Positions 11,031 through 24,329 of a DNA stretch of 26,919 nt are shown here, piece by piece; position 1 is the stretch's first letter; the number at the start of each line of letters is the position of its first letter. A program made the translations under genes and the position numbers. Source of the DNA: Candidatus Zhuqueibacterota bacterium (GTDB lineage: Bacteria > BS750m-G25); contig JADHWK010000004.1 of assembly GCA_016783505.1 (NCBI GenBank), forward strand, positions 62,001 to 88,919. The letters run 5' to 3'. Under the pieces are notes generated by a model, which saw only the letters and a program-made list of their open reading frames with translations, was not told the origin of the DNA and made no database searches.

Positions 11031-11243
11031 GAAAAAAAGTAAAAATCTTAAAAAAAAAAAAATAAGATTATTTTAAATGTAATCATCTTAGTAATTACTA
11101 ATAAAATTCCTTTTTTATAGGATAAAAAGAATAAATAAACGAATAATGTTGGGGACCGAATATTATATTTTACTCAGGCAAACCAACAATCCACTATTCC
11201 GCTCCCCCGGTCTATCAGCTCCGCTCTTTCGGAAATCGGATAC

Positions 11244-18512: not shown

Positions 18513-21500
18513 CTATCTCCCATGGCAATACTTATACTTCTTCCCACTCCCGCAGGGGCAGGGATCGTTGCGTCCTATCTTGGCCCTTTCACGGCGGAAC
18601 GGAACCCTCTTGCCGACCTGGGGAGGACCTTCGCCTTCTGGTGCCCCCTCGGCGAGTTGGGGACGGGCCTGGAAGCCCAACCCCACCGCTTCCTGATGGA
18701 CCAGGGTCACCCGCTGGGGTCCCCGCGCCCGATCCCGCTCAATCTGGAATTGGGCCTTAAAGATGAAACCCAACGCCTCCTCGTTGATGCGATCCAGCAT
18801 ATCCCTGAACATCAGAAAGCCTTCTTTCTTGTATTCCAGCAGGGGATCCTTCTGACCATAGGCCCTGAGGCCGATTCCCTCTTTCATCTGGTCCATCTCG
18901 TAGAGGTGCTCTTTCCAGCGCTCATCAATGATCCGCAGAATGGCGAACCGCTCCAACCGTTCCATCAGCTCCTCGCCCACCGTCTCCTTTTTTCGCTCCA
19001 TAAGTTCCAGGGCCTTCTGTCGAATACTCTCAGTAAGGTCTTCGGGCTTCATGGTGGGTTTTTCATCTTCATAGACCCCGGTCTGCAGCAGCAATACCTT
19101 CATCAAATCTTCTTCCAAACCCGCCCAGTTCCAATCGTCGGGGTGGGGGCTGCCATTAGTGTGCCTCTCCAGTTCGGTTTCGATGAATTCGTCAATCATC
19201 TGATGAATTTCATCCTCCAGATCCTCCCTCGCCCCCGTAAGGGCGTGAGCCCGGCGGTCGTAGATCACCTCCCTCTGCTGGTTCATGACGTCATCGTATT
19301 CAAGCAGGTGCTTGCGGATGTCGAAGTTGTGCATTTCTACTCGTTTCTGGGCGCGTTCGATGGACCGGGTGATCATGGAGTGTGTGATCACCTCGCCCTC
19401 CTGGACACCCAGCCGATCCATCACTCCGGCTATGCGGTCGGAGCCGAACAGCCTCATCAGGTCATCTTCTAAGGAGAGGTAGAAGCGGGAAGAACCCGGG
19501 TCCCCCTGGCGGCCGGAGCGGCCCCGGAGCTGGCGGTCTATGCGTCGGGCCTCGTGGCGCTCGGTGCCAATGATCCTCAAACCGCAGGGCACCTCGGGAC
19601 GGCAGTTCAACTCTTCAAAATAAGGACAGATCTCCTCGTCCGGTCTTGGGTCCTTCAGGGCACAGTTAGGATGGCGAACTATCCCGGAGCCCAGCTTGAT
19701 GTCCGTCCCCCGGCCGGCCATGTTAGTGGCGATGGTCACCGCCCCTGGCTGACCGGCAAAGGCCACTATCTCCGCCTCCCGCTGATGGTGCTTGGCGTTC
19801 AATACGTTGTGGGGGATGCCCCGCCTCTTTAGCATTTTACTCAAAAGCTCCGAGACCTCCACAGAGATGGTACCTACCAGCACCGGTCTTTTCTGGCTAT
19901 AGAGTTGCTCGATCTCCTCGATAATGGCGTTATATTTCTCCCGCTTGGTGCGGTGGATGACGTCCTCATAATCTAGCCTGCGGACGGGCTCGTTGGTGGG
20001 GATAACTACCACGTCAAGCTTGTAGATGTCCCAGAACTCCTTGGCCTCCGTCTCCGCCGTTCCCGTCATACCCGCCAGCTTATCGTAGAGTCGGAAGTAG
20101 TTCTGCAGGGTAATGGTGGCCAGGGTCTGGGTCTCCTGCTCTACCTTGACGCTCTCCTTGGCCTCCAGGGCCTGATGCAGGCCGTCCGAATACCGTCGCC
20201 CTGGCATCAGTCGGCCGGTGAACTCATCAACGATTAAGACCTTGCCGTCCTGAACCACGTATTCCACGTCTTTCTCGAACAGGGAATAGGCCCGGAGGAG
20301 CTGGGATATGTTCTGAATGCGTTCCGACCGCTCGCTGTAGAGGCGGTGGAATTCCTCCTTCTTCTTCTCCTTCTCCTGAACAGAAAGCTGGGGGTCCCCT
20401 TCGATCTGGGAGAGTTCAGTGGAGAGGTCGGGGATGACAAACATGTCTTGGTCCCCCCCGTGGTCGGAAAGGACCTCCCGTCCCTTTTCGGTCAGGTCAA
20501 TGACGTGACTCTTCTCGTCAATGGAAAAGTAGAGGGCCTCGTCAATTTCGTGCAATTTTTTGTCCCGAAGGTAATCGTTCTCCACCCGGGTGATCAGCTT
20601 TTGGGTGCCCACCTCCTGATACAGCTTCATCAGCCTTTTGTTCTTGGGCGCCCCCCGCCGCGCCTTCAGAAGCAGCTCCCCGGCCTCATATTCCTTCCCA
20701 TCCTCGAGCAGTTTTTCAGCCTCGGATACGATTTGATTGACCAGGTGGGTCTGGCTGCTCGCCAGCCGCTCCACCTCGGGTTTCAGTTCGTCAAACTTCT
20801 GCGAGGTGGAGGTGGACACCGGTCCCGAGATGATCAGGGGGGTGCGGGCCTCGTCAACCAGGACCGAATCCACCTCGTCCACGATGGCATAATGGTGGCC
20901 CCGCTGCACCTGGTCCTCGGGCCGAATGGCCATGTTATCCCTGAGATAATCGAAACCGAACTCGTTGTTGGTACCATAGGTGATGTCCTTATTATATTCG
21001 ACCCTCCGCTCTTCGGGGGTCATGGTGTGGAGGATACAGCCCACCGAAAGCCCTAAGGTTTCATAGATCTTTCCCATCCATTCGGCGTCCCGCTGGGCCA
21101 AATAGTCGTTGACGGTCACCAGATGGACACCCCGACCCAAAAGGGCATTCAGGTAGAAGGGCATGGTAGCTACTAAGGTCTTCCCCTCACCGGTAGCCAT
21201 TTCGGCGATCTTCCCCTGATGAAGGACCACCGCGCCGACGAGTTGAACGTCATAGGGCACCATATCCCACCTAACCTTCCCCCGGGCGGCCATCCAGGAC
21301 TTGCCCACCAATCTCCGACAAGCCTCCTTGACTAAGGCAAAGGCTTCCGGCAGAATCTCGTTTAAGATCTCCGCCTCCCGCTCCAGAACCCTGTCATACA
21401 TCTCCTCCTTGCTCCACCCCTTCTCCTGACCCTCCTGTTGGGTTCGCTCCCGTTCCTTTCTAATACGCTCTTTAAATTCCTCAGTCTTGGCCCTTAGCCC

Positions 21501-21623
21501 TTCTTCGGGAAGTTCGTGAAGGGTCTCATAAATTCGATTGATTTCCTCCACCACCGGTATGGTCTTTTTAATATCCCGCAGGTGCTTAGTGCCGAAGACC
21601 TTGGTTATGACATCATTAAACAT
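18513..21623 (-). CDS. secA: Preprotein translocase ATPase SecA
   Basis: [66 protein letters not shown]-terminal [19 protein letters not shown]. Confidence 0.99.
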
Positions 21624-21642
21624 ATTGGTTATTCCCCCCTTA

Positions 21643-23517
21643 TTAAATCCCTACCAATAAAACCTCTTTAGCCGCCTTATTGTTACTCAAAACATATTTA
21701 TAGTCCGTTTTGTTTACCTCTACAATATCCCTCTTATACTTGCCTAACAGATTCACTAAATCTTCAATTGAAGGAATCCCATCACTGCGATAGGAAACGA
21801 CAAGAATACTGTGTTGGAATTTATTGAAAAGTCTACCAAAGGCATCATGGATCTTGCTTTTATCCGTCCAAATTGATTTCTGATGCTTAAGTTTCCTGTG
21901 TTTACTTCTGTGATCAATCAATTTGTCCCAATTAGAATAATTAAGCAACCCTTCCAAGAAATGATAAAATTCAAAATAATCCACCCCAACCCCTTTATTT
22001 GAAATATACGGGGTGTCAATGTATACCAAATCATATTCATTCATAATGCCGAAAACATCTTTATTCAGCGCCTTGTTTTTATAACCATTTGAGAAAACCG
22101 CATTATTAGCCTCTTCAACAAATTTTTTAAAATGCACTTCAAAAGGGGTATCCCATGTCGTTTTGTTACCAAAATTTCTTTCAACATCAGAAAAACGTAT
22201 ATATAAATTTTTTCTGTGAAAAAGATTATAAGGCCTTTTGATAATACAGGCTTGAAAAAGGGCAAAATATGCCATAGCTTTTTTATAGCGATTGTCCAAT
22301 GAGTCTATATTGGTCACTACCACATCAAGCCATTGGCTTTCCTCGTCAGTGTAATAAATATCGTGAAAGGTGTCATAAATAAATGAGGGATAACTTATTC
22401 CGGGGTGCCGCTGAAGCAAATAATCAACGTCCTTACGGGAGAGGGTCACTTTATCATTCTCAATCAAGGCCAAACCAATAAAATAGTTGAACTTCAAAAT
22501 GTCATTGTAAGTAACCTGTTTGTCTTTACTTTTAAAATAATGGCTGACGCAGCCTGTGCCACCAAAAGCATCCAGAACAGAAGAAAAATTTAAATGTTTA
22601 ATATTATCCCAAATCCACTCCGTAATTTTTAACTTACTTCCTTGAAATCTTGTTGATGGAAATTTTGGGGTTTTTTCTAAAAGCTCTAATTGATTTGAAG
22701 TTCTGTAGGCAACTCCAGTTTCTCTAATCAAGGGAATTTTTTTTGATTCTATATATCCCTTGAGATTAGAATAGGGCACCTTAACTAACCTTGCCCTTTC
22801 CGCCATGTCCTTTGTCAAATAGTTCATCCAATAATCATCAAAGACACCTACTCCTAATTTTGAAAAAACACCTGTCCCATTTCGTAATTCTTCAATTTTG
22901 TTAGTCGAACCTATATTTTTTGTATTTCCGCTTCCCGGCCGATCTGCAGCTATGGTATATTTCTCTTGAACGATGAACTCAAAATCTGTAACCACAGATA
23001 AAATTTCTTCAAGATCATCAATAGTATAAATTCGTTTTTCATCAATTTTTTCTTCCTGCTGAGTATAAATGATTCCTAAGACAAAATGTTTCTCATATTC
23101 GTCATAAGGGAAGGTGATATTCTTACGACTTGTTCGCTCACGAAAATATCCGGTGAAAGCACCCAGGGTAAAACCTGATACCGTAGTGACAGATTTTCGA
23201 TAGGTGCTTTTAATATCTAGAGCAATTTGGGAGCCATCTTCATCTATGAAGCTAACATCGGGATAGAAATTTTGTTCCTTGCTTAAGACCATTTTATAGT
23301 TATTTTCCTGGGCAAATTTCTGAATAGTCGGGAAAAGCATCAGCTCAAGAATCTTTGATATTACTTTCGTATCAACAGAGATGGTGTAAATATTTTTAGC
23401 GATATCAATGAATCCCTTGACCGTCCAAGAACCATCAGGGGCTGATAATACTTTCTGAAATTCAGCAACGTATTTCGTCAATATTTTCTTGAAATTCTTC
23501 TTCATAAAAAACCCCAT
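21643..23517 (-). CDS. EcoRV-family type II restriction endonuclease (about aa 1-260) fused in frame to a D12/Dam-like N6-adenine DNA methyltransferase
   Basis: EcoRV-like [16 protein letters not shown]...ALDIK (PD-D/ExK), [14 protein letters not shown]; MTase [14 protein letters not shown] (motif I), YIDTPY (motif IV variant); visibly more AT-rich than the flanking genes. Confidence 0.88.
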
Positions 23518-23654
23518 ACTTATCCATAAATCGAAAAAAAGACGGATGTTTTTGAATTAAATGGATAGCTTACCCTTCACTCCTCTGCACCCCTGCTCCT
23601 CCGCTCCTCTGCTGTTCATAAACATCACTGACTAAAATATCACCTCAAAATTTC

Positions 23655-24329
23655 TTATCTCCCCACCAACAACCGATCCGCCAGAAAACCCGGCAGCCCG
23701 GCCCGGCGGATCTTTTCAGCCGCCAGTTGATTATCGTATTCCGAGCGTCGGAAGCTGAAATCGTCCCTTTCATTATCGTAAACCCCGAAGCAGAGCTCGG
23801 GGTTCCCATCCCGGGGCTGGCCCACCGACCCCACGTTAATGATCCGCCGCGTCCCCAAACTAAAAATTCCTGGATGATGGGAGTGACCGATAAAACAGAC
23901 CTTTTGGGTGAAATACCCAAACTGCCGTTCTGCTTCCATCGGTGAAAAGATATAATTCCACTGCTCCGGCTCTTCGGGGGTGGAGTGGACGAACAGGCAA
24001 TCATCCCTTTCTATCTTCAGGGGCAAATTTTTCAGATATTCCATGTTCTCAGGGGTAACCATCCCCTGATGTCGGAGCACCGCCTCCCGGGCGTAAACGT
24101 TAAAATAAGAGATGTCCGACTTCCCGCACACCGCCCAGTCATGGTTGCCGGCGATCACATGGGGGGTCAGATCCCGAACCGCCTCGATACACTCATTAGG
24201 ATTAGCCCCATAACCCACCAAGTCTCCAAGGCAGATAACCCCCGTTAGACCCTCCTCTTTAATTAAATCAAGGGCGGTTTGGAGGGCTTCCAAGTTTCCG
24301 TGAATGTCCGATATAATGGCCAGTTTCAT
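23655..24329 (-). CDS. Calcineurin-like metallophosphoesterase
   Basis: ISDIHGN, LGDLVGYG, GNHD, GHSH, NVGSVGQPRDG; ATG at 24329. Confidence 0.93.
   Translation of the reverse strand: MKLAIISDIHGNLEALQTALDLIKEEGLTGVICLGDLVGYGANPNECIEAVRDLTPHVIAGNHDWAVCGKSDISYFNVYAREAVLRHQGMVTPENMEYLKNLPLKIERDDCLFVHSTPEEPEQWNYIFSPMEAERQFGYFTQKVCFIGHSHHPGIFSLGTRRIINVGSVGQPRDGNPELCFGVYDNERDDFSFRRSEYDNQLAAEKIRRAGLPGFLADRLLVGR

Follow-up and report, generated by a model that had tools for sequence, protein, structure and literature searches.

The window analysed here, a stretch of 26,919 nucleotides (positions 62,001 to 88,919 of contig JADHWK010000004.1, Candidatus Zhuqueibacterota bacterium, assembly GCA_016783505.1), carries on its minus strand a restriction-modification (R-M) gene in which an EcoRV-like restriction endonuclease (REase) and an adenine methyltransferase (MTase) are read as a single polypeptide. 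The two halves meet at a run of eight A residues (the A8 run), and a first-pass annotation, made from the letters alone, had taken the arrangement for a nascent fusion, for a slippage switch yielding both fused and free endonuclease, or for an assembly error. Its description of the domains, of the place of the run and of the reading frames stands; nascent fusion and assembly error are not what the evidence below favours. Overall, we believe that the gene encodes a stable, natural one-chain R-M enzyme carried on a mobile island, in which the A8 run is incidental to conserved lysine codons, and we put the probability of this reading at roughly 0.6.

The fused gene and its two domains

The gene is a single open reading frame (ORF) without internal lesion in the ORF list of the window, and it stays open in the whole-genome contig, where it extends over 637 amino acids from stop to stop and contains no internal stop (features are collected in Table 1). 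Alignment with homologues points to Met5 (23505), rather than Met1, as the probable true start. Public NCBI annotation holds only a 387-aa protein that begins at Met238, within the nuclease domain (22789-22806), and thereby misses the nuclease half, so that the EcoRV-like part of the gene is unannotated.

Both domains are readily recognized, as the first-pass annotation had proposed for this 624-aa ORF. The N-terminal part matches the Pfam family Endonuc-EcoRV over profile positions 2-243 of 244 (expect value (E) 3e-99, 331.9 bits, cut-off 25), and a sequence search of the PDB returns EcoRV structure chains at E 7e-36. In that alignment YPD, LDIK and the loop segment stand opposite the YPD, IDIK and GSGNTTNIGS of EcoRV, and the motif residues would have the roles of their EcoRV counterparts. 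The C-terminal part matches MethyltransfD12 at aa 291-541 (E 7e-14, 52.5 bits, cut-off 22) and is 66-72% identical to stand-alone MTases of about 355 aa. Its FGGTG lies some 180 residues upstream of its DTPY, an order that corresponds to the alpha class. The methylase part has no match in the PDB sequence search at E <= 1, and the fused protein has no family match in NCBIfam. With endonuclease and methyltransferase domains inside one ORF, the protein has the domain make-up of a Type IIC enzyme. An AlphaFold2 model of the whole fusion, computed from a 21-row alignment, reached a mean predicted local distance difference test score of 55 and a predicted template modelling score of 0.38, too poor to be read for the linker or for domain packing.

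Table 1. Positions of the fused R-M gene, its parts and its island in the window
Feature	Positions	Strand	Remarks
Fused R-M ORF, 624 aa including Met1	21643..23517	minus	stop TAA 21643-21645
EcoRV-family PD-(D/E)XK endonuclease domain, aa 24-259	22741..23448	minus	Pfam PF09233, EcoRV chains
Nuclease motifs: NFYPD aa 83-87, LDIKS aa 100-104, recognition-loop-like segment aa 195-204
A8 run (T8 on the plus strand)	22737..22744	minus	gene nt 774-781
In-frame TTG (Leu263)	22729..22731	minus	aligns with GTG/ATG start region of related stand-alone MTases
Linker motif IRETGVAY, aa 264-271 (I-x-E-x4-Y)	22705..22728	minus	fused lineages only
Putative N6-adenine DNA methyltransferase part, aa 274-624	21646..22698	minus	Pfam PF02086
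Methyltransferase motifs: aa 286-295 motif, DAFGGTG aa 316-322, DTPY aa 501-504
Low-GC island, about 2 kb, fused gene as sole cargo	21642..23654		between metallophosphoesterase-like gene and secA

On the minus strand the joint reads GAA TCA AAA AAA ATT CCC TTG ATT AGA. The run lies, as had been noted, where the EcoRV-like domain ends, and it takes in the last base of Ser258, the codons of Lys259 and Lys260, and the first base of Ile261. Three-frame translation also confirms the alternative endings that the first-pass annotation had given for A7 and for A9 or a -1 slip: with one base fewer at the run the nuclease would end in ...ESKKFP at a TGA overlapping the TTG of Leu263, and with one base more, or after a -1 slip, it would end in ...KKNSLD at a TAG, both alternative frames being closed within 2-5 codons. 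A three-frame comparison of the junction with those of the split loci L014, L026, L037, L040 and L042 showed the likeness of the TTG region, 'VIR.IE' versus 'LIRE'.

The junction in independent contigs

Homopolymers are error-prone, and an assembly or sequencing error, in which the real sequence has A7 and two coupled genes, might also seem to be indicated by an NCBI annotation that holds the 387-aa protein only. That protein, however, shares the frame of the fusion, so that A8 is implied there too, and the exact 624-aa protein is encoded on a separate 2424-bp ENA contig as well. Our evidence on the population comes from Logan contigs, with 10 runs listed. A contig of 1590 bp from run X1 (depth 49.5) covers 21465-23054 and one of 859 bp from run X2 (depth 22.5) covers 22196-23054, and both carry A8 with no differences and no gaps. 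The run is thus identical in the contig of the metagenome-assembled genome, in the ENA contig and in X1 and X2. X1 and X2 belong to different studies (2020 and 2024); each carries a flag as a possible source of the assembly, which presumably at most one of them can be. Neither contains an insertion or deletion at the run, as far as contigs, from which rare variants are dropped, can tell. Since A8 without an indel stands in contigs of two studies, we regard an assembly error as very improbable. For two further runs the cover leaves out the joint: contigs of X7 end at 22680 and restart at 22750, outside both junction and run, and those of X5 have no cover over 22093-22785.

Split and fused relatives

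The family was surveyed in the best 80 of 413 confirmed relatives on genome contigs and the best 80 of 285 on metagenome contigs, 160 loci in all and 161 with the window. Both anchor motifs are present in 158 of these, and three lack the REase anchor. Among the 158, the two genes are split in 154, in the order R->M at 123 loci and M->R at 31, and fused in only four, which agrees with the background given in the first-pass annotation, that EcoRV itself is a stand-alone homodimer with a separate methylase. The fused loci are the window itself, L002 and L082, which form one lineage (named Chloroflexota), and L003 (named Anaerolineae). Because the search query was the fused alignment, which favours fused matches, the true share of fused loci must be lower still.

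Larger collections tell the same story. Stand-alone relatives of each half number in the thousands at 65-72% identity, with REases of about 261 aa and MTases of about 355 aa, and a search of 5.8 billion clusters gave only two other fused clusters among the 120 matches listed, both at the top. The first, represented by a protein of 635 aa, has 16 members drawn from NCBI, JGI, ENA and Logan; 14 of the 15 listed members span the joint, all 14 of them fused, and the fifteenth stops short of it. Three members of this cluster on long contigs (P0247, P0248 and P0250) start inside the nuclease domain or have a shifted-frame end, and are probably decaying. In the second cluster (628 aa) all three members are fused. 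None of the 10 long proteins scanned among the best 150 of 1.84 billion representatives has both domains; these ten are methylases joined to LexA-like or helix-turn-helix modules, proteins made of two methylases, or an EcoRV-like nuclease that continues into a Mutator transposase. Examples are P0378 (570 aa), in which a methylase of the EcoRV-type R-M family is joined to a LexA-like DNA-binding and S24 peptidase module, and P0522 (575 aa), in which an EcoRV-like nuclease runs into a Mutator-family transposase. Among 60 genome-set relatives of the host, all related only at the level 'same domain', eight gave scattered partial matches and none a fused gene. In both domains, the motifs for catalysis and for the cofactor are retained across all three fused lineages.

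In split loci the genes are tightly packed. At most of 118 R->M loci the MTase frame has its first ATG at -11 to +15 nt relative to the end of the REase, counted from the stop, and the frame relation, taken as anchor distance modulo 3, is 0, 2 or 1 in 54, 35 and 29 of them. The split REases end in lysine-rich tails such as ...EYKKLKR and ...EYRNIKNL. At two split loci of the anaerobic methanotroph (ANME) type, L014 and L026, nuclease and methylase share a frame and are separated by one TAA and one codon before a GTG, a junction at which a single substitution would fuse the genes. At L129 and L137 the two are separated by inserted genes, of about 0.5 kb and about 3 kb. The 31 loci with the reverse order (L045, L053-L055, L061, L066, L067, L070, L072-L080 and L138-L161) make up a sub-family that groups as one clean clade (support 100); at 14 of these loci nuclease and methylase share a frame and are parted only by the stop of the methylase, right behind which the nuclease frame begins.

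The junction DNA of the other two fused lineages reads GAA TAC AAG GGG GGA ACC, with G6 and a C7 further on, and TAT AGG GGA ATG AGC, with G4. Each of the three fused lineages has a homopolymer at this point, be it A8, G6 or G4. The first-pass annotation had proposed comparing homologues for fused state and A run, and had held that fused homologues without an A run at the junction would mark an ordinary stable fusion. The comparison gives this outcome, since the fused homologues have G6 or G4 and no A run.

Is the A8 run a slippage site?

In the slippage reading, the A8 run or its heptamer shifts the frame in a fraction of transcripts or ribosomes, so that free REase (262 or 264 aa) and a methylase restarted through the TTGA overlap would be made beside the 624-aa fusion; alternatively, the length of the run would vary in the population, as in phase variation. 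Programmed frameshift sites of the dnaX type (A_AAA_AAG) and phase-variable R-M genes are both known, and the window resembles them in having a homopolymer and a slippery heptamer, A_AAA_AAA in the zero-frame phase, in a coding region where a change of frame alters the product. The shifted frames end within 2-5 codons, beside an in-frame TTG, and A8 is the only run of at least 8 within the ORF. It is also longer than anything in the terminal 45 nt of the REase gene at the 154 split loci, where the longest homopolymer is A7 in 12 and A6 in 23, and is of length 5 in 52 (49 of them A5), and none reaches 8. Finally, the other fused lineages carry their G6 (with its later C7) and G4 where the window has A8.

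Other observations speak against slippage. No stimulatory RNA structure follows the run: the 121 nt around and after it have a minimum free energy of -12.7, while shuffled versions average -15.7 (z +1.0) and 168 of 200 of them fold equally well or better. Nothing resembling a Shine-Dalgarno sequence can be seen directly ahead of the run or of the TTG. Of the elements of a programmed -1 frameshift cassette, the heptamer is thus present, and the structure and conservation are absent: the run sequence differs among the fused lineages, and G or C runs in GC-rich Chloroflexota genes are presumably unremarkable. No variation in length was observed in the contigs of the two studies, although contigs drop rare variants. 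Nor does a run of this length call for a special cause. Of the 64 lysine codons of the fused gene 45 are AAA, and among 2000 synonymous codon shuffles 1141 contained a run of at least 8 somewhere and 286 (14%) had one overlapping the junction site. At the two codons within the run, the relatives (n=156) have K in 113 and R in 42 at the first and K in 65 at the second. The A8 run looks like the ordinary Lys-Lys codons of the family in an AT-rich gene, flanked by A, and it is not needed to explain the fusion.

We therefore consider a slippage switch distinctly unlikely. Slightly more doubtful still is the form of it in which the junction homopolymer (A8, G6 or G4) is a working slippage site that yields a fixed minority of free nuclease and of methylase restarted at TTG or ATG. 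Were slippage nonetheless real, one gene would supply the fused and the free enzyme in fixed proportion, which would be a novel means of keeping restriction and modification in balance with no controller protein. The window also contains an A13 run (11050-11062), which lies in an AT-rich intergenic stretch.

The linker and the origin of the fused state

The fused forms share a linker. The pattern I-x-E-x4-Y occurs in 19 of 19 joint-spanning stored proteins of the fused clusters and in none of 117 further stored proteins that have the MTase anchor; at the level of DNA, searched in any frame over the 150 nt that precede this anchor, four of four fused loci have it and none of 154 split ones. In all fused forms it is followed by Q-L/M.

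Trees were computed from the REase and MTase cores, with the junction excluded. In a FastTree analysis of 123 rows, which leaves out 35 incomplete loci of the 158, the window has the three other fused rows as its nearest, at path lengths of 0.54-0.58. An IQ-TREE analysis of 38 rows, comprising a 30-row clade and eight chosen outgroups, again places the fused forms nearest to the window (0.56-0.64), all of them inside one 17-row clade (support 94/92). Core identities between the window and the other fused forms are 72-72.5% for the REase and 68.5-69.2% for the MTase, only marginally ahead of the split locus L037 (71.9% and 65.7%). Constraining the fused forms to a single clade costs a log-likelihood difference of 3.1 and is not rejected by the approximately unbiased (AU) test (p 0.14). 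From the linker and the trees we favour descent of the fused state, or at any rate of the linker, from a common ancestor; the genes may also have been fused separately in the lineage of the window. Because the fused state is shared with two Chloroflexota lineages and has its own linker, it is probably old, and the proposal of the first-pass annotation that it is nascent is not favoured.

The nascent version deserves to be set out in full nonetheless. It holds that a recent, lineage-specific frameshift, neutral or attenuating, fused the genes in the window independently of the Chloroflexota fusions. Most economically, a TAC tyrosine codon would have lost its A, turning Tyr-Lys-Lys-Asn into Ser-Lys-Lys-Ile; in that case the nuclease half may have lost some of its strength, and the gene may be turning into an orphan methylase. 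At the position of Ser258, 156 relatives have Y in 114, W in 30, F in 10, I in one and S in one, the single S being that of the window. Loss of the middle A of a TAC would explain both this unique serine, in place of an aromatic residue, and the change of frame. In the third frame, moreover, the stop after KKNSLD overlaps the TTG, much as the stop after GDKND overlaps an ATG in the sister split clade; this likeness to split relatives follows of itself from the homology of the MTase start codons, and so is weak evidence. Separate frameshift events are further suggested by L003, where one G fewer would give YRE and a TGA overlapping an ATG. Junction frames vary freely among the split loci of the family. 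The best tree requires two changes. Against all this stand the linker motif common to the fused forms only, the position of these forms as nearest relatives with a single fused clade tolerated at p 0.14, and a gene with no other lesion in 624 codons and with intact catalytic motifs. Comparison with the X7 population, about 92% identical, adds that the REase part (26 differences in 658 nt) is less divergent than the MTase part (78 in 1069 nt); of the 28 MTase-part differences among the 40 of 139 differences listed, 19 are synonymous. We judge a nascent fusion unlikely, if less so than slippage.

Several observations count against a stable, long-established fusion. The linker pattern was written post hoc, with the fused forms already known. 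On the best IQ-TREE tree the fused forms are paraphyletic: the window branches off at the base, and the remaining fused forms, a clade of their own (100/97), pair (90/86) with 13 split loci, most of which come from ANME-type archaea. The distribution of the fused state takes two changes there, and a single change suffices in only 1% of bootstrap trees. From this paraphyly and the rarity of single-change bootstraps it follows that two fusions, or one fusion and a later re-split, are equally possible. Ser258, together with other frames that close at the in-frame TTG, could mark a recent one-nucleotide deletion. Some members of the 635-aa cluster look truncated, and of the 16 codons that differ between L002 and L082 nine are synonymous and seven non-synonymous, too few to judge. 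The contigs that support A8 come from two runs that are each a possible source of the assembly, and they mask minor variants. The activity of either domain is predicted from its motifs, and the one comparable engineered enzyme, described below, suggests that a fusion of this kind may be a handicap.

Comparison with known systems and a proposed mode of action

Orthodox Type IIP systems such as EcoRV are the textbook case of nuclease and methylase as separate proteins. The nuclease domain of the window is a full-length Endonuc-EcoRV domain whose PD...D-I-K and GSGNT.NIGS loop align with those of EcoRV, and its partner is a D12-class adenine methylase. The EcoRV nuclease, in contrast, is a protein of its own (PDB chains of 244-245 aa), and in the window nuclease and methylase are one chain, with a methylase part of about 350 aa that has no counterpart among PDB sequences at the threshold given above. 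The R and M genes of EcoRV are divergently arranged.

The closest parallel is a laboratory construct. According to Mokrishcheva et al. 2011 (PMC3039593), the R and M genes of the Type IIP system Eco29kI were fused by engineering into a chain, RM.Eco29kI, that is reported as fully functional; it kept 80% of the MTase activity and one third of the REase activity, while protection against phage fell 100-fold. The authors predicted that natural head-to-tail R-M pairs could fuse by point mutation. The likeness to the window lies in head-to-tail R->M genes of an orthodox Type IIP-type system that are joined into a single chain with two independent recognition modules, the Eco29kI system being one that cuts a palindrome. 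RM.Eco29kI differs in being made in the laboratory, from a different nuclease family and with an m5C methylase; the fusion in the window is natural, has an m6A-type methylase and carries a conserved, lineage-specific linker. By this analogy, we would regard the window gene as a natural counterpart of RM.Eco29kI. The lowered REase activity and phage protection of the construct (PMC3039593) are the reason to think that fusion may be a handicap.

Natural enzymes with both activities in one polypeptide are of a different make. According to Pingoud et al. 2014 (PMC4081073), Type IIC enzymes mostly combine a PD-(D/E)XK nuclease with a gamma-class (NPPY) methylase; the two domains rely on a common specificity module, and cleavage falls outside the recognition site. 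BtgZI is an alpha-class exception. Type IIC, IIG and IIB enzymes such as Eco57I, MmeI, BpuSI, BcgI and BtgZI resemble the window protein in being single polypeptides with an N-terminal PD-(D/E)XK domain. The window protein, however, has DTPY, an alpha-type motif order and a seemingly self-sufficient Type IIP-type nuclease with its own recognition loop, and it lacks the gamma-class NPPY and the shared specificity module of IIG/IIB-like enzymes. Full-text literature searches returned no report of a natural EcoRV-family R-M fusion, REBASE and supplements lying outside their scope.

The general course of events proposed for a stable one-chain enzyme can be outlined as follows. The ancestral state would have been two tightly packed, co-directional genes, and fusion would have come about by read-through of the short, lysine-rich REase tail into the start region of the MTase. 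The product would be a heritable in-frame fusion of a complete EcoRV-family Type IIP nuclease with its cognate D12/alpha-type adenine methylase, a one-gene R-M module on a 2-kb island that was presumably acquired horizontally by an uncultured FCB-group bacterium. Its C-terminal methylase domain would protect host sites, and its N-terminal nuclease domain would cut unmodified DNA as a homodimer, probably at GATATC-like sites, as the likeness to EcoRV suggests. GATATC occurs six times in the window against 8.2 expected, a count that says nothing either way on site avoidance. No second D12 methylase was found in the host genome, which is only 60% complete, so nothing follows from this.

Consider, for example, a cell that has just received such a module. 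Nuclease and methylase would be made in a ratio of 1:1 from one gene, which poses the question of how the module becomes established in a new host without a controller protein. Because cutting needs dimers and methylation does not, a freshly expressed fusion would methylate first, so that dimer-dependent cutting trailing monomeric methylation might substitute for the missing controller.

The natural and apparently maintained EcoRV-type R-M fusion is present in three or more lineages, which belong to at least two phyla. It lends support to the proposal of PMC3039593 that Type IIC enzymes can derive from head-to-tail Type II pairs.

The low-GC island

The island lies between the metallophosphoesterase-like gene, with its stop near 23655, and secA, with its ATG at 21623, and its GC content is 0.33-0.36 against 0.50-0.60 outside. 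In a related strain without the island, 21641 is joined to 23655, skipping 2013 nt, with 62 other letters in between. Contigs of this kind occur in X1 (depth 12.3) and X2 (depth 19.3), and their flank differs from the window at 20 of 177 positions. No direct or inverted repeats were found at the ends of the island. Sequences named Fidelibacterota and candidate division KSB1 share 68-69% identity with the SecA of the host.

Only 19 nt separate the stop codon of the R-M gene from the ATG of secA, which follows downstream on the same strand, with no terminator-like site between, and from this spacing secA is probably transcribed through the inserted island. A promoter and terminator scan gave 10 promoter-like sites against 7.4 expected, none of them immediately ahead of the ORF.

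Between the R-M gene and the gene upstream of it lies a 35-nt C/T-rich repeat of CCTCTGC units (23582-23616). Summed contig depth over 23556-23632 is very high (498 in X1 and 1506 in X2), with many different flanks, and the repeat recurs at six other places in the genome at 80-91% identity; it is a dispersed repeat of the host.

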